NCBI GenBank assembly: GCA_964469215.1
Contig: CAYXYB010000003.1
Coordinates: forward strand, 47,348 to 111,347
Length of the DNA: 64,000 nt
DNA from: an uncultured Lentimicrobiaceae bacterium
GTDB lineage: Bacteria > Bacteroidota > Bacteroidia > Bacteroidales > SKPS01
Direction: 5' to 3'
The stretch's first letter is position 1; every line of letters starts with the position of its first letter. Made by a program: the position numbers and the translations under genes. Shown here one piece after another: positions 4,271 to 52,568 of this stretch. Below the pieces are notes generated by a model. The model did not search any database, was not told the DNA's origin, and saw nothing but the letters and a program-made list of their open reading frames with translations.

Positions 4271-5103
4271 ATTTTTCCAGTTAGAGTCATTTTTAAATCT
4301 GCCAGCTCAGAAAGTACCGGTTCAAGGGAGTTGACCTGAAAGCAGTATCCTGCTGAACTTCTCGCTATTGCAGGGTTTGCATGTGCATCAATAATGAATC
4401 CCGCAGCTCCTGCTGCAAGTGATGCCCTTCCTAACACCAAAGCTGTCTGAAGTGCATCCTGTTCACTCAGAACAGGATGACCTGATGCTACAATATTGCT
4501 CAGGTCAATCATCACCGGAACATTGTTTTTCAACATTACCATAAGGTTTCTCAAATCCATTACTACATCATTGTATCCATGCATCGTTCCACGCTCTGTC
4601 AGGAAAATACAACTGCCTCCCTTCCTGTGTATCTTATGTACTGCCTCCGTCATCTCAAATCCATTTATTGTCATACCTTTCCTGATATTCACGCATTTCC
4701 CTGTTTTGCCTGCCGCTTCCAGGAGACTTGTTTCCCTGAAGAGGTATGCCGGTATTTGTAATACATCTGCATATTTTGCTGCAATAAAAACATCAAGTTC
4801 GTTATAAACGTCGGTCTGTACCGGTATCTGATGCAGTTTACCTATTGATTTCAGATGTTTTAATGCAGTCTCTGTGCCAAGGCCGGTAAATTCCTGAGCA
4901 ACAGCACTGTTAATTCTTTTAAAAGCAGATTTAAAAATCAGGATTATATTCAACCGTTTACATATTTCGCAAAGATGCTCTGCTGTCTTTGAAGCCAAAG
5001 CCTTGTCGTCAAGGAGCGAAGGCCCTGCAATAACCAGGAGCATACCGTTGCTAATCTCCCTTACTATGTTACGATATGAAAAATACACCTCTTTCATAAA
5101 CAT
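4267..5103 (-). CDS. KdsA (KDO8P synthase)-like protein with degenerate active site
   Basis: IAGP, FKS, DVLQIPA, TERG and GY.D scaffold of KdsA, but KANRS and the metal ligands are substituted (see findings). Confidence 0.8.
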   Translation of the reverse strand: MFMKEVYFSYRNIVREISNGMLLVIAGPSLLDDKALASKTAEHLCEICKRLNIILIFKSAFKRINSAVAQEFTGLGTETALKHLKSIGKLHQIPVQTDVYNELDVFIAAKYADVLQIPAYLFRETSLLEAAGKTGKCVNIRKGMTINGFEMTEAVHKIHRKGGSCIFLTERGTMHGYNDVVMDLRNLMVMLKNNVPVMIDLSNIVASGHPVLSEQDALQTALVLGRASLAAGAAGFIIDAHANPAIARSSAGYCFQVNSLEPVLSELADLKMTLTGKI

Positions 5104-5105
5104 TC

Positions 5106-6374
5106 TTAGTATGATAAGCCTGCTCTGTATATCACTCCTCCCGTGAAACAGAGATTTAACTTTGCTTCATCCGAAATGATGCGGTAAAGATCAGTTGACC
5201 CGAAATTGATCCACAGCTCTTTTCCTATCTTGGCATTTATCGCAAAGCCTGTCGTGTAGCCTCCGTATCCTCCGATTGTGTGTATCCTTGAAAAATATAG
5301 CCACTTGAAAACCTGCCAGTCAAAACAAACCTGTGCCATTGGCTTCATTAAAGTTTCCATCCTGTATTGGATTGATCCTCTGATAACCAAGGGCAGAAAA
5401 CTTAATTCCCTACGCATGTCGATCCGCAGATTTGCCGGTAAAACAGACATGTATCCGGAGGGTGAACCGTAACTGCTGAAGAGCTTGTCGAGTGTATCGG
5501 CAGAAATGCTGTTTTCCCAGTTTTCACCAGGGTTGAATATGTTTTCGATATAAACACCCTCATAAAGTATGGTACTGTCACGTTTCCAATAATATCCTTT
5601 GCCAGTCCATGCAATAAAACCCAGATGAGTAAGGCTCACGGCAACCGATAATTTTTTGGGACGAACCCAGGCAAAAAAGATATCAAGTCCTGGCCCTGCA
5701 CCCTGAACCGAAAAAGGGGAGGAGGGATCGTAATCAGACCTGTTTAAGCTCATGTCACTGTGCAGTGATATCCACTCGCCAAAGGGTGCAGTATATAATG
5801 AGGCTCGCCTCACATTTACATTTAGGTTACGAAATCCCAGGTTTATACCTAAAGCAAATCCGGAATAGAAAATATGATCTGGCCTTTCATTTTTCTTCAT
5901 TGCCCCTAGCTTCCATTGGAAATATTTAAGTTCCTGAAAGCGCATAGAGGTAATATTTACTGTGTCTCCCTCAAACAGGGAATTGCCGTATAAGGCCACC
6001 ATACCTGCTTCACGAGGGAATGAAACCTCTATCAATTGATGATACCCTACTCTCATCAAAAGAAACATCGAATCCTTGCCGGGAAAAATCCGGCCCTGAT
6101 GGACAGAGGTGTAATCAAAGTCATAATATCCGCCTGCAGTGTTTTTGTCGTTGATTGCAGAAGCCATATCATCGATTGCGTTTTGCTCAATCCTGCCACC
6201 ATTGCGTAACAATAAAAAGCTTTTGTTGGTAATTGTATTGGATCCTGAATGGATATCCCCCTGTAATGCATAGGTGCAGGTACCCGTTAACTGATGCAGA
6301 AAAGGGTTGAATTGTGCATCTGAAAAGGCAAATGAAAACAATGCGGTCAATAGTGCAATGTATCTCAAAGTCAT
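5106..6374 (-). CDS. DUF5723-like outer-membrane beta-barrel protein
   Basis: Signal peptide; alternating amphipathic strands; G.GLDI and LTHLGFIAW motifs; VLPANLRID region. Confidence 0.6.
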   Translation of the reverse strand: MTLRYIALLTALFSFAFSDAQFNPFLHQLTGTCTYALQGDIHSGSNTITNKSFLLLRNGGRIEQNAIDDMASAINDKNTAGGYYDFDYTSVHQGRIFPGKDSMFLLMRVGYHQLIEVSFPREAGMVALYGNSLFEGDTVNITSMRFQELKYFQWKLGAMKKNERPDHIFYSGFALGINLGFRNLNVNVRRASLYTAPFGEWISLHSDMSLNRSDYDPSSPFSVQGAGPGLDIFFAWVRPKKLSVAVSLTHLGFIAWTGKGYYWKRDSTILYEGVYIENIFNPGENWENSISADTLDKLFSSYGSPSGYMSVLPANLRIDMRRELSFLPLVIRGSIQYRMETLMKPMAQVCFDWQVFKWLYFSRIHTIGGYGGYTTGFAINAKIGKELWINFGSTDLYRIISDEAKLNLCFTGGVIYRAGLSY

Positions 6375-39778: not shown

Positions 39779-40243
39779 TTATGTTCTTAAGTGTTTATTA
39801 ATGATAGCTTTTGCTCCATCTTCGAGCAATTTAAATACTTTGTTGAATCCTTCATCGCCACCATAATAGGGATCTGGAACAGCACGATTGCTGCCGGGAT
39901 ATAAGGTGTTCATTATCAAATGCACTTTTTTTCTGTGTTCTGGTTTGTCGGTGAGTCTTAAAATATTTTGGTAGTTTTCATGGTCCATGGCAAAAATAAG
40001 ATCAAAATGTTCAAAGTCCTCATAAACAAAAGGCCTTGATCTTTGATCTGAAATATCTATTCCTTTCTTCCGGCATGTTAGAATTGCACGGTTATCCGGC
40101 CTTTCCCCGTGATGCCATGAAGATGTACCTGCTGAATCAACCAACGCCTCAATTCCATCAATTGCAAGTTGGTGTTTCAAAATACCTTCAGCCATTGGTG
40201 ACCGGCAGATGTTACCAAGACATACCATTAATATATGTTTCAT
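39779..40243 (-). CDS. Low-molecular-weight protein-tyrosine phosphatase
   Basis: VCLGNICRSPMAE, DSAGT and VPDPYYG. Confidence 0.95.
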   Translation of the reverse strand: MKHILMVCLGNICRSPMAEGILKHQLAIDGIEALVDSAGTSSWHHGERPDNRAILTCRKKGIDISDQRSRPFVYEDFEHFDLIFAMDHENYQNILRLTDKPEHRKKVHLIMNTLYPGSNRAVPDPYYGGDEGFNKVFKLLEDGAKAIINKHLRT

Positions 40244-40365
40244 AAAAATCCTTCAATGCTTTTTAACCAGGTTGCATTATTTATGGTATACTCGAACCTG
40301 AGCCGGATTATGTAAAATTTCATAAAAATGATGGCTGTCAACACAGAAATCAGGTAAGTGTTTCG

Positions 40366-41811
40366 TCAGAGTTTGATCTTTTTTTCGAGTTCTTCTATAT
40401 ATAACTTGAACTTCTTATCGGTTTCCTGCAGGTTGTTTACTGTGCGGCATGCATGAAGAACAGTTGCATGATCTTTGTTTCCGCAATGCAGGCCTATTGT
40501 TGCCAGTGAAGCTTTCGTGAGTTTTTTACTAAAATACATTGCTAATTGCCTGGCCTGCACAATCTCCCTTTTGCGTGTCTTTGACACCATCAACTCAACT
40601 GGCAGGTTAAAATAGTCGCAAATAACTTTTTGGATATAATCTATTGAAATCTCCCTTGTAGTGCTCTTTACAAACTTGTCGATCATCTGGCGCGCCAGTT
40701 CAAGTGTGATAGCCTTTTTGTTAAGTGACGACTGTGCAATAATGGAAATAAGTGCTCCTTCAAGTTCTCTTACATTTGTTGTAATCGAGTATGCAAGGTA
40801 TTCAACAACTTCACGGGGTATGGTAATGCCGTCCTGGTAAAGTTTCTTGTCAAGAATGGCAATTCTGGTTTCCAGGTCAGGCACCTGCAGGTCTGCAGAT
40901 AATCCCCATTTGAATCGTGAAAGTAATCTGGGTTTAATCCCCTGCATCTCCACCGGAGGTTTGTCTGAGGTAATTACCAGTTGCTTGCCATTCTGATGGA
41001 GATGATTGAAGATGTTGAAGAAGATGTCCTGGGTTTTCTCTTTGCCGCTAAGAAACTGAATATCATCAATTATCAGAACATCCATCATCTGGTAGAAGTG
41101 TACGAAATCGTTCTGCGAATTGTTTCTTACCGCATCTATAAACTGGTTGGTAAATTGATCCAGTGTGACATATAAAACCGTTTTTTCGGGGAAATGATTT
41201 TTTACTTCAAGCCCTATTGCCTGTGCAAGGTGAGTTTTTCCCAGGCCAACGTTGCTATATATCAGAAGTGGGTTAAAGGAGGTTTTTCCGGGTGCCTGGG
41301 CAACCGCAAATCCTGCGCTTCGCGCAAGTCGGTTGCAATCACCTTCAATAAATGAATCAAAGGAATAACTCTCGTTGAGTTGTGAATTGACTTTAATTTT
41401 TCTCAGGCCTGGAATTATAAAAGGATTTGGTATCTCTTTAACATTATCGCGGTTCAGGTCAATTGGCATAGAAACGAATGCATTCTGTGTAGCCTTTTTG
41501 TTTGTGGTTGGCATATTGATTTTGTAAGGCTCACCTTTTCCGTCTGCGCCTGCGGTATTATCCATTATAATACTGTATTCAAGCCTCCCTTCAGGCCCCA
41601 ATTCTTTTCTAATCGTCTTACGAAGAAGAGTAATATAATGCTCTTCAAGCCACTCGTAAAAAAACTGACTAGGCACCTGAATAGTTAGTATCTGGTCACT
41701 TAGCTTTACTGGAAGGATAGGCTCAAACCATGTTTTGAAGCTCTGATAGCTAATGTTATCACGAATTATGGCAAGACAGTTTTGCCAGACTTCATCACAT
41801 GTTTGTTTCAT
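40366..41811 (-). CDS. dnaA: Chromosomal replication initiator
   Basis: WFEPI, FNPLLIYSNVGLGKTHL (Walker A), LIIDDIQFL, RLLSRFKWGL, NVRELEG, RQLAMY and KDHATVLHA. Start placed at MKQTCDEVW. Confidence 0.97.
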   Translation of the reverse strand: MKQTCDEVWQNCLAIIRDNISYQSFKTWFEPILPVKLSDQILTIQVPSQFFYEWLEEHYITLLRKTIRKELGPEGRLEYSIIMDNTAGADGKGEPYKINMPTTNKKATQNAFVSMPIDLNRDNVKEIPNPFIIPGLRKIKVNSQLNESYSFDSFIEGDCNRLARSAGFAVAQAPGKTSFNPLLIYSNVGLGKTHLAQAIGLEVKNHFPEKTVLYVTLDQFTNQFIDAVRNNSQNDFVHFYQMMDVLIIDDIQFLSGKEKTQDIFFNIFNHLHQNGKQLVITSDKPPVEMQGIKPRLLSRFKWGLSADLQVPDLETRIAILDKKLYQDGITIPREVVEYLAYSITTNVRELEGALISIIAQSSLNKKAITLELARQMIDKFVKSTTREISIDYIQKVICDYFNLPVELMVSKTRKREIVQARQLAMYFSKKLTKASLATIGLHCGNKDHATVLHACRTVNNLQETDKKFKLYIEELEKKIKL

Positions 41812-42128
41812 ATAAAGTATTGTGTTATTATGGTTATGATCGGCTTGCAAAGATGGTTCAAAAAAAAGATGATAAATATAACAAAAAAAACTTGACTTTC
41901 TACTTTTTTTATATTAAGGGGTAAACTTTTCATTTTTTGATCTCCAGAAATTAATCCATTCAATATCGAGTTCTTAGTTGTCGAATTGTCATCAAACCTT
42001 CTTCTTAACATTAACATAACCATAATTTATAACAATCTGTTTCTCTAATACTGGGTTTCTAATATATGTTATTTGACTGTATGATCCAGATATTATGTGT
42101 TTTAACGCCAATGATTAAATCGCTTTTA

Positions 42129-42758
42129 TTAATCATTTATCATTGAGATTTTTATAGATTCGTTTTTGGCTACATTCAAGTCATTAATCCTGTTGAAAAT
42201 ATCCTGAATCTTCGGTAAAGACTTCACCGGAATCCTGCAATGAATTTCACAATTCAGGCCGAAGTCATTGCCAACAATTGATAAATTTTCTTCCTTAATA
42301 ACTCTCATCACCAGATTCATTGATTCATATTCAAAGCTAATGAGAAGATCTACGGTTATCTCTTTTTCGATGATGCAAGTATCGAGTATTGCATCCCTGG
42401 TTGTTGTCCGGTATGCATTGATCAATCCGGAAATACCTAGCTTTGTTCCACCAAAATATCTAATGACAATTGCCAAAGTGTTGGTTAAGCTATAAGATAA
42501 AAGCTGGCCAAAAATGGGCTTACCCGCAGAACCTGACGGCTCTCCATCGTCATTTATCCTCCATTCCTCGCCTTGATAACCTAGTCGGTATGAATAACAA
42601 TGATGTCTTGCGTCATGATAGTCTTTTCTGTACTTTTCTAGTATTTCTTTTATATTTCCTTGTTTTTCAACAGGTAATACCAATCCTATAAACCTGCTCC
42701 CTTTTTCACGAAACAGCGATCTGCCCTCTTTTTCGATAGTCTTATAAGTAGTTTTCAC
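42129..42758 (-). CDS. yigZ: YigZ / IMPACT family protein
   Basis: EKGSRF, ARHHCYSY, NDDGEPSGSAG.PI and RYFGGTKLG..GLI.AY. Confidence 0.92.
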   Translation of the reverse strand: MKTTYKTIEKEGRSLFREKGSRFIGLVLPVEKQGNIKEILEKYRKDYHDARHHCYSYRLGYQGEEWRINDDGEPSGSAGKPIFGQLLSYSLTNTLAIVIRYFGGTKLGISGLINAYRTTTRDAILDTCIIEKEITVDLLISFEYESMNLVMRVIKEENLSIVGNDFGLNCEIHCRIPVKSLPKIQDIFNRINDLNVAKNESIKISMIND

Positions 42759-42848
42759 AGGGAATAAAGTTAATAATTACACTCAATCCGCAATACTGGC
42801 CACATGAAAAAATTTACGGGTCAAAAAAAATCGCTGTTTCTTTTTATG

Positions 42849-42856
42849 TAATTTTG
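42849..42856 (+). promoter_or_regulatory. sigma-A -7 element (TAATTTTG) upstream of the SRAP gene
   Basis: Matches TAnnTTTG in the divergent yigZ/SRAP spacer. Confidence 0.45.
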
Positions 42857-42895
42857 TTATTTGTGAGTAACCGGAACTTGTAAAACATATCTGAA

Positions 42896-43717
42896 ATGTG
42901 CGGCAGATATATTCTTGTACAGAAAACAGAGATCATCGAAATGGCTTTCAACATAACCATACCGGAAGATCTAAACTTCAATGGTTCCTATAACATCTCA
43001 CCCGGTAAGGCATCTCTGGTAGTTACAGGAGAAAACCCTAAACAAGCCAGTATGTTTGTTTTTGGCCTTACACCATATTGGGCAAAGAAACCTCTTTATC
43101 TTATCAATGCAAGAGCTGAGGGTGATTTTAACAAAGAAAACAATCGTAAATATTCCGGAGCAAAAGGGATCATAAACAAACCTGCTTTTCGTAAACCAAT
43201 TCGCAGCCAGCGTTGTCTGGTTCTGGCTGATGCATTTGTTGAAGGTACGACAAAGGAAAAACTGGCTAAACCTTTTATCGTGTATCTTCGTGACAGAAAG
43301 CCTTTTGCAATGGCTGGAATATGGGACAGGTGGTATGATCCCGATACAGGAGAGGAGCTGAACTCATTTGCAATCATAACAACTGTTGCCAACGATCTGC
43401 TGTCTATGCTGCCGCATCACCGCTCTCCGGTCATTCTTGAAAAGTCGATGGAAGAGGCTTGGTTACATGCCAACAATCTTAGCGATATCACTTGGATGCT
43501 TAAACCATATCCATCTGAAAAAATGAATGCTTTTCCGATTTCTTCTGCAATAAGAAATCCACGTGTTGACGGAAGACATTTAATAGAGCCGGCAGGGGAG
43601 AGGTTGCTAGTTGAAAGCAGAGTTATATCAACACCGGAACTAAAACTTCAGGGAATGGGATCCTATAAAGTCAGGCCAAAAGATCCTTCAGGGCATCCTT
43701 CAGACCCGGAAACCTGA
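42896..43717 (+). CDS. SOS response-associated peptidase (SRAP/YedK/HMCES; abasic-site protection)
   Basis: N-terminal MCGRY (catalytic Cys2), INARAE, QRCLV.ADAF.E, FAIITT and HHRSPVIL. Confidence 0.92.
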   Translation: MCGRYILVQKTEIIEMAFNITIPEDLNFNGSYNISPGKASLVVTGENPKQASMFVFGLTPYWAKKPLYLINARAEGDFNKENNRKYSGAKGIINKPAFRKPIRSQRCLVLADAFVEGTTKEKLAKPFIVYLRDRKPFAMAGIWDRWYDPDTGEELNSFAIITTVANDLLSMLPHHRSPVILEKSMEEAWLHANNLSDITWMLKPYPSEKMNAFPISSAIRNPRVDGRHLIEPAGERLLVESRVISTPELKLQGMGSYKVRPKDPSGHPSDPET

Positions 43718-44588
43718 AACTGAAACCTGATTCCATGAGTGCTTTTGGAAATATCCACTGGTTTGCCAGGAGGGTCTCATTAACCATTCCGCGCCCAAAT
43801 AAAATCTTTAGAAATACTGATGGTATAGGGGATGATAAAATGGTTCCTTTCAATGATGCTGCATACTTTACAATATGTTTCATACTTGCAGATTCAGGGG
43901 AGGTCAGGTTGTAAACATACTTGTGGCTCTGTTGTTCTATAAGATGTCTTATAGCATAAACAACATCATTAAGGTGAATCCACGAAATCATCTGGTCACC
44001 TGATCCTGGATATCCTGCAATGCCTGTTTTCATTGATTTAACTATTCTTGCAAGAGCTCCTCCTTTCCCTGCCAGTACAACCCCAATTCTTATAGAAATG
44101 GGGTTTGGCACCCCGGTTAGTTTAGCCTCTTTTTCAATTCTGCTGCAAACTTCAGCAAGAAAACCATCACCTGACGGAAAGCTTTCGTCAATCATCTTTT
44201 CGGTTTGTGTGCCATAGTAACCTATTGCCGAAGCCTGGATAAAAATCTCAGGTTTTTTTTCAGCTTTAAAGATAGCAGAACGCAAATTTAGGATAGATTG
44301 GATACGGCTTTCAAGGATTCTCATTTTCTTTATCTCTGTCCACCTTCCTGAACCTATGTTTTCACCAGCAAGGTTAATAATTGCATATGATCCATCAACC
44401 TCCTTAACCCATGAATTTTGATCATCATCTCCCCAAAAGCAGATCCTGATACCTTTTTCAGTAAGCATAACATGATCTGAACCCTTTCTTATAAGGCCGA
44501 TAACCTCGTAGCCACAGTCAATAAGATGAACTGCAAGTGGAAAACCTATCAGCCCTCTTACCCCGGTAATAATTATCTTTTTTTTCAT
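43671..44588 (-). CDS. TIGR01777 family NAD-dependent epimerase/SDR (YfcH-like)
   Basis: IITG..GLIG, INLAGENIG..RW, ASAIGYYG, RIGVVL..KGGAL and SWIHL.D. Confidence 0.9.
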   Translation of the reverse strand: MKKKIIITGVRGLIGFPLAVHLIDCGYEVIGLIRKGSDHVMLTEKGIRICFWGDDDQNSWVKEVDGSYAIINLAGENIGSGRWTEIKKMRILESRIQSILNLRSAIFKAEKKPEIFIQASAIGYYGTQTEKMIDESFPSGDGFLAEVCSRIEKEAKLTGVPNPISIRIGVVLAGKGGALARIVKSMKTGIAGYPGSGDQMISWIHLNDVVYAIRHLIEQQSHKYVYNLTSPESASMKHIVKYAASLKGTILSSPIPSVFLKILFGRGMVNETLLANQWIFPKALMESGFSFRFPGLKDALKDLLA

Positions 44589-44613
44589 ATATTGATAGGT
44601 TTAATTCGATGTA

Positions 44614-45786
44614 TCAGCTAACCTTTTTTGCCCTTACAAATGATTTTGAACGATCGAACAGGTAACGATACGTGACGTGTGTTTTGCGAATTTTACAACC
44701 TACCATTTCTGCAATCCGCATCATTGTGGGATTAAAATCACCTATCCAGTTAAGCTCTAGTTCCTTGTAAGGAAAATTTTTCCTGAGAGCTACTTCCCTG
44801 AATGAATATACCATAGCTCCTTCAATGCCCTTGCGCTGATGCTCAACGGTTATCCCAAATATCAACCCAAGGGCAGTAGTACACACTTTTCTTATTTTAA
44901 AATACCACAGGAACTTTAATTTTGCACATAGGTTAAAACTGCCGTTCAGGTGCCTGAATACCTGGTTCATTTGAGGAATCATGATAAAAAAGCCTACCGG
45001 TTCATTGTCGTAATAGGCAAACCAGACCAGACGCTCATCCAGAATAGGTTTCATACTTCTTAAAAGTGATCTGGCATGAACAATTGAGATCTCTTTTACA
45101 CCGCTGTACCTCTTCCATGCATTGTTATAAACGTGACGGAACTCTTCAGCATAACGTTCAGCCTGCCCTTTAGCAATATGTTTTATACTGTACCTGGGAT
45201 TATCGGCAATACGAGCTGCAGTGGCTTTCATGTGCTCATCAAGATCACCGTCGAAAACGTATCTGTGAAATGTGTATTGGTTATAATAATTCTGAAACCC
45301 GTATTCTTCAAAAAGTTTTTTATAGTAGTGCAGGTTATATGGAACACAATAGTTCGGTGGATAAAACCCTTCAACAAGCAATCCCCACCATTTATCGCGG
45401 TCACCGAAGTTTACCGGGCCATCCATTGCCTCCATACCTCTGTTTGACAACCATTCTTTAGCTGTATTGAAAAGTAAAAAGGCAGCTTCTTTACTATCGA
45501 TACATTCAAAAAAACCAATGCTTCCGGTTGGCTGGTCGAAAGTATAACAGATTTTTTTGTCATAAAATGCAGCCAGCCTGGCAATTGTGATACCATCATC
45601 GTCTTTTAGTATCCATCTTATTGCCTCGCCATGTCGAAAATGTTTGTTTTTCGCAGGGTCAAAGATATCTCTAATATCCTTATTCAATGGTTTGATCCAG
45701 TTGGGGTCATCCTTGTAGAGCCTATCCGGTAAATGGAGAAACTCCTGCTCTGATTGCTTTGTGGTTACTTCAATCAGCTTAATCAT
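44614..45786 (-). CDS. GNAT-fold hypothetical protein (YghO-like)
   Basis: FL.LP..LY..DPNWI.PL, GSIGFFEC, M.AMDGPVN.GD.D.WWGLLV, YN..YY..LFE.YG and EL.WIGDFN..M. Start at MIKLIEV. Confidence 0.7.
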   Translation of the reverse strand: MIKLIEVTTKQSEQEFLHLPDRLYKDDPNWIKPLNKDIRDIFDPAKNKHFRHGEAIRWILKDDDGITIARLAAFYDKKICYTFDQPTGSIGFFECIDSKEAAFLLFNTAKEWLSNRGMEAMDGPVNFGDRDKWWGLLVEGFYPPNYCVPYNLHYYKKLFEEYGFQNYYNQYTFHRYVFDGDLDEHMKATAARIADNPRYSIKHIAKGQAERYAEEFRHVYNNAWKRYSGVKEISIVHARSLLRSMKPILDERLVWFAYYDNEPVGFFIMIPQMNQVFRHLNGSFNLCAKLKFLWYFKIRKVCTTALGLIFGITVEHQRKGIEGAMVYSFREVALRKNFPYKELELNWIGDFNPTMMRIAEMVGCKIRKTHVTYRYLFDRSKSFVRAKKVS

Positions 45787-45829
45787 ATCCGGGGAATGTA
45801 TTATTATTATGATTTGTATTCCTGAATAT

Positions 45830-47290
45830 TCAATCGGCTCTTTTGTGTTGACATCCATCAGTGGTTAAGTAAGCTATATGCCTGTTTGGCAACTCTTTGT
45901 AACCGAAAAGATTTCTATTAATAATGACTTCAGAGATGTAAACGGGTACCTTTTCTAACCACACTGAGTCTCCGGATTCGATCTCGTTCAATACATCCCG
46001 GGATCGTATATAAAGTTTTGAAACTCTTACATTCTGTATGTCAATAATATAATGGTTTTCCTTAAGATGACAGATAAGTTTTTCGGTTCCTGGATCAGTT
46101 AGCATATCATTAAAAGTATTTATCCTGCCTGTGTTTTTGTCTATTGTAGGATAGACAAGCAATCTTGTGTCCTGTTGAAATAATTTACCAAAAGCCTCCA
46201 TGATGCCGCCTTTCAGATCCTGATAATAATACTGGTCTAAAACCTTCTTCAGAGTGTCAACTCCCATTACCATTCTGATCCTGTTGATCTGATACCTTCC
46301 CAGAAATTCAGTAAGCCTGTAAAATTCCCTGAATGTCGATACCATTACGTTCTGCCCCATGCCGTTCAGGATATCAACACGAGCCAGAAAATCCCTTTCA
46401 TCAATGTCACCCACAGAAAGAAGATTATCCAGAGTCATTTCACATATTACCAGCATATTGCTCTTGTCACATCCCTGCTCCTTTTTCATAAGGGAATAAC
46501 CGGTCTTCAGCATATCGAATTCGACATAAGTAACAGGGCGGAAACTGCCCCTCAGAACCATCAGGTTTTTTTTGTACAACATATCAGAAGGTTGCTGAAC
46601 TTTTCCATAACGGTCGAAGATGACAGCAGGAGTCATTTTGTTTTTTACTAACTGTAGGCATAGCAGTCTGTTATCCACATATGACAACTGAGGCCCGGCC
46701 ATTTCAATCATGGTGATTTCAATCCGTTTAGGCCCAAGGTCATCAAGCAAAGATCTTAGAAATGTATTTGGTTTATCATAATAATAAAATGCACCGAAGA
46801 TAAGGTTTGTACCAAGCACACCCAGTGTCTGTTGCTGAAGAAGGGTATCATTCTCAAGTAGTCTTACGTGAAGAATAATCTGGTTGGGTTCACCTGAAGG
46901 AACAAGCTGGAATCGTATGCCTATCCAACCATTTCCTGTGTTGGTTTTTTCATAGTTAATGGTTGTTACTGTGTTGGCAAAAGAAAAAAAACGGGTGGCA
47001 GGATCGCGTTTTGAGGATAAAAGCTCAGTAAGCTGGGAATATTCGGTTTTCAACATTCTGGTCAATCGTTCTTTGCTGACATAACGCCCGCTCTTTCCGT
47101 ATAGATTATCACTGAAAGACATGTCGTATGCCGAAATCGTTTTCGCAATAGTACCCGACGCACCTCCGGCTGTAAAAAAAATTCTGGATGTTTCCTGACC
47201 GCCGCCTATTTCAGCAAATGAGCCGTAATTAACAGGATCTAGATTGATCTGCAATGCTTTCTGCCTGGTCGACAACACATTGATTACCAT
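45830..47290 (-). CDS. Conserved Bacteroidota protein with nucleotidyltransferase (NMNAT)-like C-terminal domain
   Basis: KAL.INLD...YGSFAEIG.GQE, GGASGTIAK.ISAYDM, RYV...RL..ML..EY, QQ.TLG.LG.NL and RGSFRPVT. Confidence 0.65.
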   Translation of the reverse strand: MVINVLSTRQKALQINLDPVNYGSFAEIGGGQETSRIFFTAGGASGTIAKTISAYDMSFSDNLYGKSGRYVSKERLTRMLKTEYSQLTELLSSKRDPATRFFSFANTVTTINYEKTNTGNGWIGIRFQLVPSGEPNQIILHVRLLENDTLLQQQTLGVLGTNLIFGAFYYYDKPNTFLRSLLDDLGPKRIEITMIEMAGPQLSYVDNRLLCLQLVKNKMTPAVIFDRYGKVQQPSDMLYKKNLMVLRGSFRPVTYVEFDMLKTGYSLMKKEQGCDKSNMLVICEMTLDNLLSVGDIDERDFLARVDILNGMGQNVMVSTFREFYRLTEFLGRYQINRIRMVMGVDTLKKVLDQYYYQDLKGGIMEAFGKLFQQDTRLLVYPTIDKNTGRINTFNDMLTDPGTEKLICHLKENHYIIDIQNVRVSKLYIRSRDVLNEIESGDSVWLEKVPVYISEVIINRNLFGYKELPNRHIAYLTTDGCQHKRAD

Positions 47291-47292
47291 TT

Positions 47293-47982
47293 TTAAAGAT
47301 TCAACAGCTCTTTGATCCTTTTTGCACTTATATCAGCAGGAAGGATTATGCGTACCCCGTTGGGATACCTGATCTGCATTACAGGTCCTGACAATTTCTG
47401 TTCCGGCAAACTTTCAGGTGTCTTAATAATTTCATTTTTTACTACTGCTGCTACCTTTGCAGAGGGCTTAATGCCTTTAATTTTTTTTGCCTTTTTAATG
47501 ACTGCCGTTATACCTTGATCTGCTGAATCAATTTTCCGTGGCCTCCCTATTCTTTTCGGTTCTGCAGGTATCTCGGTAAGCTCACTTGAAACCCGGGTAG
47601 GAGCTTTTAAACTTACTTTCGGTTTGATAGCAGTTTTCTTATTCTTATTTATTTCGGCCTGTTTCCTTTCCTTCACTGGTTTTGAAGTTACAGATTCTCC
47701 CACTTTACCTTCCAGTTCTTTTTTGGATTTTCTACCTCTTCTCGGCTTATCCTCAACCTCTTCTGGAAATTTATCATAATACTTTTTTTGCCAGTAATAG
47801 AAGTTAGACATGGGGTAATTGCTTTCAAGACAAAACTTTCTGCGGGTCAAGCCACTGACCTTAAAGGTTTTAATTATCTGAAACATCTCATCTTCAGTCA
47901 ATTGGGGAGTGCTCCTCCTAATCCTTGTAGATGTAACTTTTCCTTCAACCGGTTTTTCTTGGTTAATGTTTCTTTCTTCCAT
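47293..47982 (-). CDS. Orphan IS66 TnpA-like HTH protein with Lys-rich AT-hook linker
   Basis: SGLTRRKFC...SNFYYWQKKY HTH and C-terminal QIRYPNGVRIILP, both typical of IS66 TnpA; internal KPRRGRKSKK and KRIGRPRK. Confidence 0.7.
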   Translation of the reverse strand: MEERNINQEKPVEGKVTSTRIRRSTPQLTEDEMFQIIKTFKVSGLTRRKFCLESNYPMSNFYYWQKKYYDKFPEEVEDKPRRGRKSKKELEGKVGESVTSKPVKERKQAEINKNKKTAIKPKVSLKAPTRVSSELTEIPAEPKRIGRPRKIDSADQGITAVIKKAKKIKGIKPSAKVAAVVKNEIIKTPESLPEQKLSGPVMQIRYPNGVRIILPADISAKRIKELLNL

Positions 47983-48191
47983 CTTTTTAAGTATTTTGAT
48001 TAATTATTACTAACATAAAATAATAAATAACAATACATTAAATAAATATACATATTGTTTTTTATTGAGTGCAATTTACTTTAATAAAAGTTAATTTCCA
48101 AATTAATTAACATTTCATCGAAAAAAAAGTTTGATTTTTGCAAAAGTATTCAATTTTGATAATTAAATTCCAACTAATTAAATAACTATAA

Positions 48192-49631
48192 ATGAATATT
48201 ATACAACATCAGAAAAAAACAAAAATCGTGGCAACTATTTCCGATAAGAATTGCACTGTGGATTTTATAAGGACTTTACACGAAAAGGGAATGGATGTGG
48301 TAAGGTTAAATTCAGCACACCAGGAGACAGATGAGGCTTTGAAGGTGATAAAAATGGTACGTGAAGTTTCTGATCAGATTGCTATTCTTATTGACACAAA
48401 AGGCCCTGAAATCAGAACCACAATAATAGAACCGCCAATAAAAGTTGAAGCAGGTGATATAATCGAAATAGGTTCAGACGGAAAAAGCTCTGTATCTGAT
48501 AATCTGAATAGAATATTTGTAAATTACAAAGGATTTGTTGATGATGTATTTCCCGGAACGCGAATACTGATCGATGATGGTTATATTGAGCTACTTGTGA
48601 TTGACAAAGGTATCGACAGGTTGATATGCAAGGCTCTAAATCGGGGAACACTTAAAAGCCGAAAAAGTGTCAATGTTCCTAATACATCATTTAATCTGCC
48701 AGGCCTTAACAATAAGGACAAAGAGTTTATAAGGTTTGCGGCAGAACAGGATATTGATTTTATTGCTCATAGCTTTGTCAGGAACAGGGATGATGTTCTT
48801 GCAGTTCAGCAGGAGCTTGACAAATATGGAAGCAGGATTAAAATAATTGCAAAGATTGAAAACCAGCAGGGTGTTGATAATCTGACAGAGATTCTTGATC
48901 ATGCTTATGGAATAATGGTCGCCCGTGGAGATCTTGCGGTTGAAATTCCATTCGAACAGATTCCCGGAGTTCAACGCGATATAATCAAAGAATGCAACAG
49001 AAACAAGAAGCCTGTAATAGTTGCAACTCAGATGCTTCATTCTATGATAAACAACCCCAGGCCTACACGCGCTGAGGTAAATGATGTTGCCAGTGCTATT
49101 TTCCGCCGTACCGATGCTGTTATGCTCAGTGGAGAAACCGCGTTTGGAAATTATCCTGTGGAGTCGATGTCCACCATGACAAAAATTGCTGTTGAGGTTG
49201 AAAAAAGCAAAGAGGATAACCTTGCATACAATTTTGTTGACAAAAAGCGGAAAGTGCCTTCACACCTGGCCAAATATGCGGTTGAAGCCTCCATGGATCT
49301 TAATGTTGTTGCTATAATTGCTGATACAAACACTGGACGAACACCCAGAAGCTTGTCCAGCTATCATGGCAGAAAGCCTGTCTTTGCAGTTTGCTATTCA
49401 AAAAGGACAATGCGTGAGCTGGCTCTCAGCTATGGTGTTATACCTCTTTATATGGAACCTAAACCAACTTCACACGAGTTTATCAAAAACGCACTTAAAA
49501 TAATTCAACAGAGATTCGATGTATCGGATGATGGATTACTCGTTGTTATTGCCGGCAGTTTCGGTTCTACACATGGAGCCTCTTATGTAGAAATCGGCAC
49601 CGTAAAAAACCTGCTTGGATTTGTATTATAA
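48192..49631 (+). CDS. pyk: Pyruvate kinase
   Basis: KTKIVAT, IDTKGPEIRT, IIAKIEN, IMVARGDL.VE, ATQML.SM, PRPTRAE and MLSGETA. Confidence 0.97.
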   Translation: MNIIQHQKKTKIVATISDKNCTVDFIRTLHEKGMDVVRLNSAHQETDEALKVIKMVREVSDQIAILIDTKGPEIRTTIIEPPIKVEAGDIIEIGSDGKSSVSDNLNRIFVNYKGFVDDVFPGTRILIDDGYIELLVIDKGIDRLICKALNRGTLKSRKSVNVPNTSFNLPGLNNKDKEFIRFAAEQDIDFIAHSFVRNRDDVLAVQQELDKYGSRIKIIAKIENQQGVDNLTEILDHAYGIMVARGDLAVEIPFEQIPGVQRDIIKECNRNKKPVIVATQMLHSMINNPRPTRAEVNDVASAIFRRTDAVMLSGETAFGNYPVESMSTMTKIAVEVEKSKEDNLAYNFVDKKRKVPSHLAKYAVEASMDLNVVAIIADTNTGRTPRSLSSYHGRKPVFAVCYSKRTMRELALSYGVIPLYMEPKPTSHEFIKNALKIIQQRFDVSDDGLLVVIAGSFGSTHGASYVEIGTVKNLLGFVL

Positions 49632-49658
49632 CTCCAAACCCGAAACTTAAATCAGTGA

Positions 49659-50183
49659 CTATATTTTGTTTCTATTCTTGCGCCTTATTTCACCTGTTTT
49701 GAACGAAAAATACCTTTGCATCAAATAGCTGTATAGAACAACAAATACCGTGGTAATAATCTTTGAGGGTGTGGGAAAAATACCAAATTGTTCAACAAAT
49801 AGCTTTAGCAACAGGTAGTTGATGAGAATTGCCCCGAATACAGTTATCCCGTATCGGAAGAGCTGTTTCTTCCCCCTGAAAAGAGAATTGGTGAAAGTGA
49901 CGTACTTTGCAAGAATAAAACCTGTACTGAAGGTAATGGGAAATACTATTAAAAATGCTGCAATATGAGGAGATATGGTTATTCCGGGAACAGATACCAT
50001 CTGCTTTTTTAACACAAAATTGTAAAAGATAAAATATAGTATTATATCAAGGAAGGTGTTTGCGCCACCGGTAGCCGCATACCTAAATGTTTCAACAGGT
50101 ACATATCTTCTGATTGGCCAGTGTACCAGATCAACAATAAAAATTATCAGATTGCGGATCTTCCTTCCCAGTTCTATCATCAC
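49659..50183 (-). CDS. GtrA family membrane protein
   Basis: FRYAATGGANT.LD; four hydrophobic helices; KY.TF and RY. Confidence 0.85.
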   Translation of the reverse strand: MMIELGRKIRNLIIFIVDLVHWPIRRYVPVETFRYAATGGANTFLDIILYFIFYNFVLKKQMVSVPGITISPHIAAFLIVFPITFSTGFILAKYVTFTNSLFRGKKQLFRYGITVFGAILINYLLLKLFVEQFGIFPTPSKIITTVFVVLYSYLMQRYFSFKTGEIRRKNRNKI

Positions 50184-50208
50184 TTTTATTCTGAATTATT
50201 TCGGGCAG

Positions 50209-50255
50209 CAAACCTAAAAGAATTTTCGCTTATACCCAAATATGATCTATTTTTG
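50209..50255. promoter_or_regulatory. Divergent pair of sigma-A -7 elements (gtrA: TAGGTTTG on -, 50209-50216; rmuC: TATTTTTG on +, 50248-50255)
   Basis: Two exact TAnnTTTG matches, each facing its gene. Confidence 0.5.
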
Positions 50256-50291
50256 CAGGAATAGTCTAATGTAAAATTCATTATAGAAATC

Positions 50292-51599
50292 ATGCCTGAA
50301 GCTGAATCAATAATTATTATTATGCTTTTTGCTGTAATACTGGCACTTCAGATCTTTATTCTTACCAGGCAGGGTCGTAGTTCAGGATCGGAAATAACCT
50401 TGATAAACCGGTTTGAAAAGCTTGAGAGCGCTCTTGAAGGAATTGAGAAGAGGCTGAAGGATGAGTTCAGGATGAACAGGGAGGAAAACAGCCGGATGGC
50501 CATGGAGAGTCGTTCTGAGATGATCAATACATTTCGGGAGATACAAAAGCTGTTGTCAGAGACAATAATGTTGTCATTCAAAGAGTTCAGGGGTAGTTTC
50601 GAAAAGGGGGTTGAATCTTTAAACCAGTCACAGCGTCAGATGTTTTCTCAGCTCAATGAAAAGCAGGAGAAACTAATCCTGAGTACTGAGAAGCGCCTTG
50701 ATCAGATGCGTGAAACCGTTGACGAAAAGCTTCAGAAAACCCTTAATGAAAGAATAGGTCAATCATTCGAAACGGTAGGCAGGCAGTTGCAGGAGGTTCA
50801 GAAGGGCCTGGGAGAAATGAAAACCCTTGCTCAGGATGTTGGCGGTCTTAAAAAGGTCCTCAGCAATGTTAAACAACGTGGTGGAATTGGGGAGGTTCAG
50901 CTCGCTATGCTTCTGGAACAGATGCTTGCTCCGGAACAATATGAAATGAATGTAAGGACAAAACAGGGATCTTCCGAGAATGTTGAATTTGCAATTAAGC
51001 TGCCTGGCCGTGAGGAAATAGGCAAACATGTATATCTTCCAATTGATGCTAAATTCCCTAGAGATGTTTATGAAAACCTTACCGATGCTTATGAAACTGC
51101 TGATCCTTCATTAATCGAATCTGCAGTTAAATCGATGGAAAACTCTATTAGAAAAATGGCAAAAGATATAAGGGATAAATACCTTGACCCACCTGATACC
51201 ACAGATTTTGCAATCATGTTCCTGCCATTTGAAGGTATATATGCAGAGGTCATTAGAAGATCTTCACTTATTGATCAGTTACAAAGGGAATATAAGGTTG
51301 TTGTTACCGGACCCACAACTCTTACAGCAATTCTCAACAGCCTGCAAATGGGATTCAGAACCCTTCATCTTCAGAAACGAAGTAGTGAAGTTTGGTCAAT
51401 TCTCGGTTCAGTAAAGACCGAATTTGAAAAATTCGGTGGTCTTCTCGAAAAAGCACACAAAAACATCACCACCGCAGGTGGTGCCATTGATGAACTTATG
51501 GGTAAAAGAACAAACGCCATCAAGCGTAAGCTCCGGGAGGTGGAATCTTTACCTGCTGCAGATAGCAGAAATATTATTGCAGATTCAACTGAAGATTGA
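50292..51599 (+). CDS. rmuC: DNA recombination protein RmuC
   Basis: N-terminal TM plus coiled coil; NVKQRG..GEVQL, LPIDAKFP, T.DFAIMFLP.EG.YAE, GPTTL.A.LNSLQMGF and KTEFEKF. Confidence 0.95.
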   Translation: MPEAESIIIIMLFAVILALQIFILTRQGRSSGSEITLINRFEKLESALEGIEKRLKDEFRMNREENSRMAMESRSEMINTFREIQKLLSETIMLSFKEFRGSFEKGVESLNQSQRQMFSQLNEKQEKLILSTEKRLDQMRETVDEKLQKTLNERIGQSFETVGRQLQEVQKGLGEMKTLAQDVGGLKKVLSNVKQRGGIGEVQLAMLLEQMLAPEQYEMNVRTKQGSSENVEFAIKLPGREEIGKHVYLPIDAKFPRDVYENLTDAYETADPSLIESAVKSMENSIRKMAKDIRDKYLDPPDTTDFAIMFLPFEGIYAEVIRRSSLIDQLQREYKVVVTGPTTLTAILNSLQMGFRTLHLQKRSSEVWSILGSVKTEFEKFGGLLEKAHKNITTAGGAIDELMGKRTNAIKRKLREVESLPAADSRNIIADSTED

Positions 51600-51683
51600 T
51601 ATAGCATCTTATCCATTATTTCTTTTATTCCTTTCCTCAAATATTCAATTATTTTCATATTTTTACCCTTTAATTAACCTGGG

Positions 51684-52568
51684 ATGAATATGAAATCAGC
51701 TATTAGGGTCTCCATGCTTTTGTTATTATTATCTGGATTCTCTCAGGCTCAGACACCAAAAATTATTTGGGCTTTCGATACCCGTGATATGTCAGCAGGC
51801 CAGAGTGCAATGGATGATATTGATAATGACGGAAAATATGAGATTGTCTTCGGATGTTATCGCAACGACAGTATGATTTACGCCATCAATGCAGAAAACG
51901 GATCTTTACATTGGAAGTATAAGGCTGCGGGTTCAGGAGATGGATGTAATGATGTTGCTTCTTTGATTTTTGATATTGATGGTGATGGTTTCAAGGAGGT
52001 TATTGTTCCATCATCATGTTATCCAAGAACCTACTGCTTTGATGGGGCAAGCGGAATTGTTAAATGGGTCAATGTTACCCGCGGAAGCCATTCACCACCG
52101 GTGATCGCAGATTTTGATGGCGATGACACTCTTGATCTGTTCGTTGTTGGAGGTTATTCCGAATACCCCAACTTCTCGGTTAACTATGGTAGAGGTTACG
52201 CAATACAGGCAGGAAAAGGAGCAGGGCCGGATTGGAAAATGTTCCAAAGGGATTATTATCGTTCCTGCAGTTACTGCTATACCGGGCAAATAATTTCGAA
52301 TGTAGGTTCAAATGATATCAGTAGAAATTTCTTGTTCAACATTCACCCAGTTCCGCTGGGAAAAAACAGCATACTCCATATTAATATAAATGTTGAAGTT
52401 GAAAATCTTGTTAGGCTTTTTGATATTTCCGGTAAGCTTATTCATACAACTGTAAACCCGCAAAGTATAGATCTGTCCGAATTGGATCTTCAGCAAGGGG
52501 TATATTTAATAAAGTGCAGTAATGTTTACGGAGAAAGCACCAGAAAAATCGTTATCACAGGCAGATAA
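51684..52568 (+). CDS. T9SS type A sorting domain protein with three FG-GAP-like Ca-binding repeats (possibly internally deleted)
   Basis: Signal peptide; DIDNDGKYE, DIDGDGFKE and DFDGDDTLD repeats; CTD (HP.P...LFDISGKL...QGVYLIK...RKIVI). Confidence 0.75.
   Translation: MNMKSAIRVSMLLLLLSGFSQAQTPKIIWAFDTRDMSAGQSAMDDIDNDGKYEIVFGCYRNDSMIYAINAENGSLHWKYKAAGSGDGCNDVASLIFDIDGDGFKEVIVPSSCYPRTYCFDGASGIVKWVNVTRGSHSPPVIADFDGDDTLDLFVVGGYSEYPNFSVNYGRGYAIQAGKGAGPDWKMFQRDYYRSCSYCYTGQIISNVGSNDISRNFLFNIHPVPLGKNSILHININVEVENLVRLFDISGKLIHTTVNPQSIDLSELDLQQGVYLIKCSNVYGESTRKIVITGR

Follow-up and report, generated by a model that had tools for sequence, protein, structure and literature searches.

A probably domesticated IS66 TnpA homologue with an AT-hook in its linker, a putative DNA-binding protein of Lentimicrobiaceae-type Bacteroidales

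In the window, the whole 64-kb stretch of DNA that was analysed, a homologue of the IS66 accessory protein TnpA, here called X, is encoded between the divergent pyruvate kinase gene (pyk) and a gene for a 486-aa protein (Table 1). The first-pass annotation of this DNA had placed the open reading frame of X at exactly these positions, and every peptide that it quoted was found. Reading away from pyk, X is followed by a deaminase gene where one is present, a gene for a protein of 48x aa, a gene for a protein of 389 or 414 aa and an epimerase gene. The order is the same in each of the eight independent orthologous loci that were examined, which comprise the window's species, six orthologues at 34-47% identity and the locus L008; in most orthologues the deaminase gene lies between X and the 486-aa gene. 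In the window, as the annotation had noted, only 2 nt separate the stop codon of X from the next start codon. Co-transcription of the two genes is therefore likely, and no terminator-like site was found between them on the minus strand. The same annotation had called the downstream gene a housekeeping gene, a label that was not borne out: its product is a highly conserved Bacteroidota protein without a Pfam or NCBIfam match. Its homologues number at least 7,967, those listed being 54-84% identical. A PDB sequence search with the two downstream proteins gave chance-level matches to P450 for one and none for the other. Rfam gave no match on positions 40000-52000. The genome has a GC content of ~40%.

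Table 1. Features of the X locus, in positions of the 64-kb window
Feature	Position	Strand	Remarks
Conserved Bacteroidota protein, 486 aa, function unassigned	45830..47290	-	ATG at 47290, 2 nt past X stop
Gene X, 229-aa IS66 TnpA homologue	47293..47982	-	ATG start; TAA stop at 47293-47295
C block of X, aa 200-229	47296..47385	-	beta-beta-alpha module, TnpA-derived
Linker of X, aa 77-199	47386..47754	-	Lys-rich, predicted-disordered, polycationic
AT-hook PKRIGRPRK, aa 142-150	47533..47559	-	core G146-R147-P148; DNA read directly
KPRRGRKSKK, aa 79-88	47719..47748	-	basic RGR motif directly after the HTH
N block of X, aa 27-76	47755..47904	-	three-helix HTH and conserved FPEE tail, TnpA-derived
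Divergent pyk-X spacer	47983..48191	.	209 bp, GC 0.153
Conserved 12-mer TTTGCAAAAATC, containing palindrome TTTTGCAAAA	48133..48144	-	
Pyruvate kinase (pyk)	48192..49631	+	PF00224, E 2e-107; divergent from X in every orthologous locus

In the AlphaFold model of X, two folded modules flank the linker. The helices of the N block (aa 30-43, 47-54 and 58-71) were predicted with pLDDT values of 94-96, and the C block, with strands at aa 201-205 and 211-215 and a helix at aa 220-228, with a pLDDT of ~90; most of the linker had values below 50. A model of the canonical TnpA P0277 showed the same two modules, including the beta-beta-alpha element, joined by a disordered linker of ~20 aa (aa 54-73). 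When both models were compared with the PDB using Foldseek, only generic HTH domains were returned, all with E > 0.6, and the C-terminal module had no structural homologue there. Among the top matches, non-significant, was CENP-B (PDB 1hlv; E 0.86-1.6, TM about 0.3). The C block is proposed to be an oligomerisation or partner-binding module.

Both ends of X had been described as conserved blocks of IS66 TnpA, and the search of TnpA models that had been suggested as a check was carried out. The HTH matched NF047593 (IS66_ISAeme5_TnpA) at aa 30-71 with an E value of 1.7e-11 and 44.5 bits, above the curated cutoff of 28 bits, and 14 of the 15 family members matched this model at E ≤ 0.01. The match of the C-terminal part to NF047595 (IS66_ISRel24_TnpA, aa 174-227) was weak and under the cutoff of that model (E 0.018), but the block was recognized in pairwise BLASTP comparisons with P0274. 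This protein was counted as a verified IS66 TnpA because it is followed by TnpB_IS66 and then DDE_Tnp_IS66 (L026-L028); it matched the N block with 40% over 50 aa (E 1e-10) and the C block with 50% over 26 aa (E 1e-7). A second verified IS66 TnpA is the 112-aa ORF at positions 5944-6282 of L009. A profile search of 1.84 billion representatives yielded 12 full-length long forms at E < 1e-30 and, below a gap, about 800 proteins, mostly of ~100 aa, that matched in two stretches. Among the 138 further representatives listed, 110 were 50-149 aa long, in agreement with the size of about 100 aa given earlier as usual for TnpA, and nearly all of the short ones were two-stretch matches.

Neither X nor any of the 15 family members had a significant Pfam match, the sole PHROGs match of X was a weak one to a transposase (E 0.021), and PADLOC gave no match for X or three of its neighbours. 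Homology of X to H-NS, Lsr2, MvaT, Rok, HU or IHF was not detected in Pfam, NCBIfam or the PDB. X and IS66 TnpA thus share a homologous N-terminal three-helix HTH with an FYYWQKKY motif and a C-terminal beta-beta-alpha module with the pattern (I/L)xYPNGVR...L..L, in the same order. They differ in length, since TnpA has ~100 aa with a linker of ~20 aa, whereas X has 229 aa with a polycationic linker of 123 aa that carries an AT-hook.

The other parts of an IS66 element were not found around X, as had been stated before. In tblastn searches of the window (best E 0.14) and of nine orthologous loci, TnpB and TnpC from the verified IS66 elements of L009 and L026 had no match. Nor did the terminal inverted repeat of the closest verified IS66 match with up to three mismatches allowed, and no inverted repeats were found flanking X; IS ends were likewise lacking at the nine loci. 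The genes downstream of X encode the conserved 486-aa protein or the deaminase, and not tnpB (PF05717) or tnpC (DDE_Tnp_IS66). Within the window X is a single-copy gene, and its base composition is like that of its neighbours. X differs from the TnpA of IS66 elements in having neither tnpB, tnpC nor inverted repeats, in its single copy and fixed syntenic position, and in its vertical inheritance.

The family of X comprises 16 clusters among 5.8 billion, all with intact ORFs, all unnamed and without Pfam assignment. It is limited to Lentimicrobiaceae-like Bacteroidales MAGs, and its members in these data come only from uncultured wastewater, digester and sediment bacteria. The long forms were monophyletic among 65 short TnpAs, and the BLOSUM distance from the family to the nearest short TnpA was at least 0.56, compared with 0.34 within the family. 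In four outgroup Bacteroidales, X is absent beside the 486-aa gene (486-aa homologues 54-58% identical); their neighbourhoods are entirely different, and no pre-insertion (empty) site was found. A description of this family was not found in literature searches that covered IS66, TnpA and AT-hooks, domesticated transposases of bacteria, and Lentimicrobiaceae.

Synteny and purifying selection in related genomes, both proposed as checks by the first-pass annotation, were analysed. Gene order was kept among orthologues, and no IS66 remnants were present. Since dS was saturated in nearly all pairs, no proper dN/dS could be given, and dN was instead considered relative to that of a neighbouring core gene. 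Values of dN were 0.09-0.38 for the N block and 0.18-0.44 for the C block, comparable to 0.19-0.27 for the core neighbour gene, and the linker evolved faster (0.6-1.6). Both TnpA blocks are under strong purifying selection, like the core neighbour gene. Mapping of four DNA metagenomes on the locus revealed no variants inside X.

These results bear on two explanations that keep X tied to mobile elements. The first is that X is a decaying IS66 remnant or a strain-specific mobile gene without host function, in keeping with the fact that NF047593 would name it 'IS66 family accessory protein TnpA'. It is contradicted by the intact ORFs in all 16 clusters, the identical synteny across lineages despite saturated dS, the purifying selection on both blocks and on the GRP core described below, the lack of IS ends and a base composition that matches the neighbours, and we regard it as very improbable. 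The second is that X, as a repressor or immunity factor encoded by the host, regulates resident IS66 elements in trans: its HTH would bind IS66 ends or promoters, and its C-terminal module would titrate TnpB or TnpC. Both TnpA modules are retained and conserved, and in canonical elements the gene order indicates that TnpA works together with TnpB and TnpC, as such a role would have it. However, no IS66 copy was present in the window or in the nine orthologous loci, and the family lies so far from the short TnpAs that no matching contemporary IS66 partner is evident. Retention through saturated dS would moreover need persistent IS66 pressure, and the invariant AT-hook and cationic tail would be left unexplained, which makes this role improbable.

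X thus derives from an IS66 TnpA that was captured once in an ancestor of the Lentimicrobiaceae-type Bacteroidales and has been inherited vertically as a single-copy gene. It is very probably a domesticated host gene that is no longer part of a transposon. The core proposal of the first-pass annotation, a transposon accessory gene exapted to the host, is upheld by the TnpA-like ends, the synteny, the selection and the invariant GRP. For the role of the protein, that annotation had named three candidates, a histone H1/HMGA-like DNA-binding protein, a xenogeneic silencer and a trans-regulator of IS66, among which sequence analysis does not discriminate.

During this process, the ~20-aa linker of TnpA was expanded to a disordered polycationic tether of 76-213 aa with one invariant AT-hook. 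In X, the 123-aa linker contains 21% Lys, 9.8% Glu and 8.1% Pro and has a net charge of +19 and a pI of 10.3, and so fits its earlier description as a long Lys/Pro/Glu-rich segment between the TnpA blocks. Across the family, Lys makes up 15-25% of the linker and the net charge ranges from +7 to +33, the lowest charge belonging to the member with the shortest linker (P0008). Some linkers contain repeats like those of histone H1, namely KAPKVPKAPKAPK in P0004 and L006 and AKAAAEKKAKAAAAKRAKAAA in P0003, and the L008 orthologue is repeat-expanded with tandem 21-aa KKKPGRKPKA units. The highly repetitive Lys/Ala/Pro tails of some orthologues look more like non-specific condensers of the histone H1 type than like a regulator.

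The GRP core of the hook was invariant in all 15 aligned members and located at the same relative place, with the family consensus KRRGRPKK, in a linker that is otherwise unalignable across the family. Composition-preserving shuffles predicted a GRP by chance in 1-7% of cases per linker, and any GRP occurred in only one of 137 non-family TnpA representatives among those listed. Some family members have two GRP hooks. X has a GRP core with Lys/Arg on both sides, as an AT-hook is defined. To call its hook canonical was slightly overstated: the GRP is invariant and the family consensus is canonical, but the copy in X has Ile at position -1 in place of the canonical core Arg (RIGRP vs RGRP). The second motif that had been described as hook-like, KPRRGRKSKK, lacks Pro and is therefore by definition no AT-hook; the RGRK form occurred at this position in 7/15 family proteins scanned, so that a conserved hook is not present there.

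AT-hooks recognise AT-rich DNA in the minor groove, usually as helpers of a major-groove DNA-binding domain (PMC11354804). From its domain composition, X probably binds DNA through the HTH together with the AT-hook. Alternatively, X might have no relevant DNA binding; its modules would make protein-protein contacts, e.g. with the proteins encoded co-directionally downstream, and the linker would serve as an entropic spacer. The same co-directional cluster always begins with X, which in the window lies 2 nt from the 486-aa gene, an arrangement that such contacts would suit. Against them, the HTH fold was predicted confidently and its fold-search matches, non-significant as they were, were all generic DNA-binding HTH domains, while the invariant, basic-flanked GRP is a motif for the DNA minor groove. 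The 486-aa gene, moreover, is separated from X by the deaminase gene in most orthologues and is found without X across the Bacteroidota. Such a purely protein-binding X has a low probability.

Bacterial proteins with Lys/Ala/Pro-rich segments like those of histone H1 include mycobacterial HupB/MDP1 with its tail, Pseudomonas AlgP and Chlamydia Hc1. X resembles these proteins and HMGA/H1 tails in having a disordered, Lys/Ala/Pro-rich segment with a pI above 10 and one or more GRP hooks, and some orthologues share the PKAPK or KKPGRKPKA type of repeat. It differs from them in its two folded, conserved, transposon-derived modules and has no homology to HMGA, H1 or HU; the copy in the window has one hook and few repeats.

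X could accordingly be pictured as an abundant, genome-wide nucleoid protein of the histone H1/HMGA type, possibly a xenogeneic silencer, in which AT-rich DNA is coated or bridged non-specifically by the AT-hook together with the Lys/Ala/Pro tail, and the HTH and C-terminal module anchor the protein and oligomerise. The linker is polycationic in every member (up to 25% Lys), several orthologues have H1-like repeats and some have two hooks. In addition, X lies ~5.5 kb from dnaA. The replication origin is probably near X, and if so, the position of X is typical of highly expressed genes. The cumulative GC skew of the 64 kb reaches its lowest value exactly at the X-pyk spacer, which was considered as oriC and rejected, since the skew tracks the orientation of the genes, 64 kb is a short stretch and no DnaA boxes occur in the spacer; the sole perfect one lies within the 486-aa gene.

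Several observations speak against a nucleoid protein. The HTH is conserved as strongly as a core enzyme, which argues for a specific target, whereas the linker varies from 76 to 213 aa in length and has a net charge of just +7 in P0008. In a genome of ~40% GC, AT-richness also marks foreign DNA less well than in high-GC hosts. We consider a nucleoid protein of this kind unlikely. It is doubtful that X founds a lineage-specific class of HMGA/H1-like bacterial chromatin proteins that organise or silence AT-rich DNA genome-wide; the AT-rich targets of such a protein would possibly include its own region near dnaA. That X acts mainly as a local, site-specific regulator rather than as a global nucleoid protein can be suggested tentatively.

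The spacer between pyk and X must carry the promoters of both genes. It had been described as extremely AT-rich, which its GC content of 0.153 over 209 bp confirms; orthologous spacers have GC contents of 0.21-0.24. The window copy of the conserved 12-mer TTTGCAAAAATC includes the Bacteroidetes-type TAnnTTTG, and the 12-mer occurs once in the 64-kb window. Exact copies are present in the corresponding spacers of L001, L022/L023 and L007, four lineages in all with the window, and the 12-mer lies 162-163 nt upstream of the ATG of X in the window, L001 and L006. The spacer is a candidate target of X, and the 12-mer a candidate promoter element or operator. The 12-mer may also simply be a promoter element of X or pyk and no operator. 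For the X transcript, a leader of ~130-150 nt is predicted. The model used in a sigma-70 promoter scan is uninformative for Bacteroidota. In X19, the sole metatranscriptome with part of X, a contig of 267 nt spans positions 47311-47577 and suggests transcription; it has a depth of 2, which is no basis for ranking abundance, and comes from a library that possibly contains DNA.

Bacterial precedents for AT-hook proteins are CarD of Myxococcus xanthus and WhiB7 of mycobacteria. Like X, they carry an RGRP-type hook in a basic segment that is joined to a DNA- or RNAP-binding module, and by this likeness the hook of X would be expected to anchor the protein next to a promoter on AT-rich DNA. The domains joined to the hook are, however, unrelated: a TRCF-like RNAP-interacting domain in CarD and an Fe-S WhiB domain in WhiB7. 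The hooks of these two proteins are C-terminal, whereas that of X is located between two transposon-derived modules. CENP-B embodies the same concept, the reuse by the host of an HTH from a transposon for DNA binding, but it is eukaryotic, originates from the pogo transposase itself and not from an accessory protein, and gave no significant match to X. H-NS and Lsr2 read the AT-rich minor groove with an 'AT-hook-like' Q/RGR motif (PMC8476142, PMC4466236). Minor-groove recognition of AT-rich DNA would be shared by X and the silencers H-NS, Lsr2, MvaT and Rok, although it is only predicted for X; their folds and oligomerisation domains are unrelated, and the GRP hook of X is embedded in a disordered segment.

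The best overall explanation is that X is a domesticated TnpA that now acts site-selectively, in transcription or DNA architecture, at AT-rich promoters, a reading for which the balance of probability is level. The HTH would recognise a specific site in the major groove, much as TnpA presumably does on the DNA of its own element. The AT-hook would dock in the narrow minor groove of an adjoining A/T tract, the Lys-rich tail would add non-specific electrostatic affinity, and the C-terminal module would mediate self-association or partner binding. Combined, these roles would let X work site-selectively at promoter regions that are very rich in AT. First among the candidate targets would be its own divergent spacer, which has 15% GC, is common to X and pyk and contains the palindrome-bearing 12-mer. 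For IS66 TnpA, we know of no DNA target and of no solved structure.

For eukaryotes, the domestication of transposon proteins is well documented, CENP-B and many transcription factors being examples. To our knowledge, clear vertically inherited domestications from bacterial insertion sequences are scarce, and no function has been assigned to IS66 TnpA itself. The X family, which is confined to a narrow clade (16 clusters of an anaerobic Bacteroidales family that is uncultured in these data), is a natural experiment in which both modules of TnpA were retained to serve the host and the linker was rebuilt as an AT-hook/H1-like tail. Because NF047593 scores X above its cutoff, automated annotation will present this conserved host gene as part of a mobile element, and this mislabelling would inflate IS counts in Lentimicrobiaceae-type MAGs. 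The DNA targets of X would reveal the abilities of the TnpA HTH and C-terminal module and so inform IS66 biology, and X would bring a new architecture to the few true AT-hook proteins of bacteria. If X were a chromatin protein, bacteria would offer a clear example of an IS accessory gene turned into a nucleoid protein.

Translation of the minus strand confirmed the ORF coordinates claimed for gene X in the first-pass annotation, and all peptides quoted there were present in the 229-aa product. The claimed 2-nt gap to the next gene was found as 2 bases between the stop codon of X and the ATG of a 486-aa ORF, and no terminator was seen between the two genes. The region upstream of X proved as AT-rich as described: the 209-bp spacer to the divergently transcribed pyruvate kinase gene (pyk) contains only 15.3% G+C. 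The GC content of X itself (0.36-0.42) is like that of the neighbouring genes, and no Rfam family matched around X. A single 267-nt metatranscriptome contig, spanning 47311-47577 inside X, is weak evidence that X is transcribed.

Features of the X locus and its surroundings
Feature	Position	Strand	Basis or remark
X, 229-aa ORF, ATG start	47293..47982	-	ORF translation
X stop codon TAA	47295-47293	-	sequence read
486-aa ORF, downstream of X	45830..47290	-	ATG at 47290
414-aa ORF	44614..45858	-	29-nt overlap with end of 486-aa ORF
Pyruvate kinase (pyk), divergent from X	48192..49631	+	PF00224, E 2e-107
12-mer TTTGCAAAAATC, holding palindrome TTTTGCAAAA	48133-48144	-	X-pyk spacer
dnaA	40366-41850	-	about 5.5 kb from X

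The NCBIfam model NF047593 (IS66_ISAeme5_TnpA) matched aa 30-71 of X with 44.5 bits (E 1.7e-11; curated cutoff 28 bits) and NF047595 (IS66_ISRel24_TnpA) weakly matched aa 174-227 (E 0.018); a Pfam search of X gave no significant match. Bona fide IS66 elements were sought as an independent test of the C-terminal block (aa 200-229). At locus L009, an ORF of 112 aa carries both blocks, and behind it come an IS66 Orf2-like protein and an IS66 transposase of 529 aa. A second TnpA, P0274 (105 aa), is encoded directly upstream of PF05717 TnpB_IS66 and PF03050 DDE_Tnp_IS66 genes, and is found on 14 contigs, with different surroundings in the three places listed. In BLASTP, X and P0274 aligned collinearly in the N-terminal HTH block (aa 27-76; 40% over 50 aa, E 1e-10) and in the C block (50% over 26 aa, E 1e-7). 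An X-family profile searched against 1.84 billion representative proteins retrieved 12 full-length relatives (E < 1e-30, 159-324 aa) and, after a gap, some 800 proteins at E < 1e-3; of the lower-ranked matches listed, the majority are about 100 aa long and align in exactly two stretches, the N and the C block. The NF047593 match above its cutoff and the alignment of P0274 at both blocks bear out the TnpA origin claimed for both ends, which are, as judged from sequence, homologous to IS66 TnpA.

AlphaFold models of X and of the canonical 103-aa TnpA P0277 showed the same layout, a three-helix HTH, a disordered linker and a beta-beta-alpha module. For X the pLDDT was 94-96 in the HTH, about 90 in the C module and below 50 in the linker; in P0277 the disordered linker is confined to aa 54-73. 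The shared architecture shows that the linker of X is an enlarged pre-existing flexible hinge and not an insertion into a folded domain. As a separate observation, proteins P0015-P0019 (349-450 aa) contain 6-8 tandem copies of a TnpA-type HTH, confirmed by reading P0015-P0017; among these three, P0016 and P0017 end with a TnpA-like C-terminal block, and P0015 and P0017 come from Alphaproteobacteria MAGs. They appear to be a second, unrelated elaboration of IS66 TnpA.

Searched by tblastn with TnpB and TnpC of the two verified IS66 elements, the 64-kb window (best E 0.14) and nine orthologous loci gave no match, and TnpA of the same elements did recover X and its orthologues. Neither the terminal inverted repeat of the nearest verified IS66 nor inverted repeats flanking X were found, in agreement with the described lack of tnpB, tnpC and IS66 ends nearby, and X occurs once in the window. 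X does not belong to a mobile element. Trans-regulation of IS66 copies by X is possible, though unsupported, as none of the loci looked at was seen to contain an IS66.

The proposed synteny check showed the same gene order, (RmuC, GtrA) pyk <-> X -> (deaminase) -> 478-486 aa -> 389-414 aa -> epimerase/DUF1731 <- SRAP, in the window's species, in six orthologues that share 34-47% identity and stem from different metagenomes and MAGs (P0002, P0003, P0004, P0008, P0009 and L006) and in the repeat-expanded orthologue at locus L008. The deaminase, present in most loci, is of the dCMP/tRNA type; Impact_N comes after SRAP in all loci reaching that far except L021, and dnaA follows wherever the sequence extends further. 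Named genome matches are Lentimicrobiaceae or Bacteroidales MAGs, and the organism is present in bioreactor and wastewater metagenomes. A word-indexed profile search found only 16 family clusters among 5.8 billion 90% clusters, all unnamed or 'hypothetical' and none with a Pfam domain. A neighbour-joining tree built on the N and C blocks joined end to end placed the 15 long proteins in one clade with all 65 short TnpAs outside (mean distance within the clade 0.34; nearest short TnpA at 0.56). The simplest reading is one capture event followed by vertical descent.

Since synonymous sites were saturated in nearly all pairs, dN/dS could not be computed. The dN was 0.09-0.38 in the N block, 0.18-0.44 in the C block and 0.6-1.6 in the linker; the values of both blocks equal those that the conserved 486-aa neighbour shows for the same pairs of genomes (0.19-0.27), a sign of purifying selection, which was one of the proposed checks. 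All family members are intact ORFs, many keep the M-E-E start, and the locus is clonal within the window's species (four metagenomes). X is a fixed orthologue under purifying selection; a decaying IS66 remnant was excluded as its identity.

The linker of X (aa 77-199) comprises 123 aa with 21% Lys, a net charge of +19 and a pI of 10.3. Across the 15 family members the linkers are unalignable and vary from 76 to 213 aa, with composition kept (K 15-25%, net +7 to +33). The sole invariant tripeptide, G146-R147-P148, lies within the consensus KRRGRPKK. GRP arises in only 1-7% of linkers after composition-preserving shuffling and occurs in 1 of 137 non-family TnpA representatives; the AT-hook is thus a selected feature specific to the family. 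The hook had been called canonical; its GRP core is present, but the window copy reads KRIGRPRK, with Ile for the canonical Arg. The proposed second motif, KPRRGRKSKK, did not hold up: it lacks Pro, and the RGRK form occurs at this place in only 7 of the 15 proteins scanned. A second true hook (KKKPGRP) is present in some orthologues, and some carry H1-like repeats (KAPKVPKAPKAPK, or tandem 21-aa KKKPGRKPKA units). In the L008 orthologue (4871-6111, uncultured Lentimicrobiaceae MAG CAZZBS010000005.1; the recorded ORF is broken by masked N) the HTH is diverged and tandem ~21-aa repeats (VKVEKKKPGRKPKAQPLAAEA) enlarge the linker, which shows that the linker grows through repeat expansion.

The 486-aa protein has at least 7,967 homologues in a search limited to 8,000 candidates; identity is 54-84% among the matches listed, and the named ones are mostly from Bacteroidota. 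It has no Pfam or NCBIfam model. Sources name it variously 'TonB-dependent receptor', 'nicotinamide mononucleotide adenylyltransferase' or 'hypothetical'; it is a widespread conserved Bacteroidota protein with no assigned domain. In four outgroup genomes X is absent beside homologues of the 486-aa protein (54-58% identical), and the contexts are unrelated. The 414-aa protein gave no Pfam, NCBIfam, PHROGs, PADLOC or PDB sequence match, and its counterpart is kept in all orthologous loci (389-414 aa).

The 12-mer TTTGCAAAAATC occurs once in the window and exactly in the equivalent spacers of four other loci (L001 5839-5850; L022 3059-3070; L023 405-416; L007 4372-4383), and with two mismatches in that of L006. 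The pyk-X spacers of several lineages (15-24% GC) are unalignable outside it. In three lineages the X ATG follows 162-163 nt downstream of the 12-mer, and the distance from the 12-mer to pyk varies. Because a Bacteroidetes-type TAnnTTTG element overlaps some copies, the 12-mer may be a promoter element of X, an operator or both. Over the whole window, cumulative GC skew reaches its lowest value precisely at the X-pyk spacer (~47800-48200). The spacer holds no DnaA boxes, the sole perfect TTATCCACA being at 46671 within the 486-aa gene, and the skew follows gene orientation; this was too little to call oriC there.

X, homologous to TnpA at its two ends, lies outside any IS; its linker is expanded, disordered and cationic and carries an AT-hook kept by selection. 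What is established for HTH domains and AT-hooks (review PMC11354804), with CarD and WhiB7 as bacterial precedents, leads us to infer that X recognises DNA in a bipartite fashion. The HTH would engage the major groove and the hook would enter the minor groove of adjacent A/T DNA, the cationic tail would contribute electrostatic affinity, and the C-terminal module may provide self-association or partner binding. The favoured role is that of a site-selective regulator or architectural factor working at promoter regions of very high AT content, its own spacer first, since conservation of the HTH is as tight as that of an enzyme. Several orthologues have H1-like repeats, which keep a global nucleoid protein seriously in play.

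X is by descent a member of the IS66 TnpA family; of the features that define a working part of an IS66 element, it lacks the three that were tested, namely adjacency to tnpB/tnpC, IS ends with mobility, and the usual size. The bacterial AT-hook precedents CarD and WhiB7 resemble X only in pairing an RGRP-type hook with a further module, HMGA and H1 only in the tail, and CENP-B is comparable only in concept. A literature search found no description of the family. X is rated as probably joining two known kinds, domesticated transposon-derived DNA-binding proteins and bacterial AT-hook proteins. Since X scores above the NF047593 cutoff, automated pipelines will name it 'IS66 family insertion sequence element accessory protein TnpA', which wrongly implies a mobile element; X is a conserved host gene and a clean, unusual bacterial domestication, though within a narrow uncultured clade.
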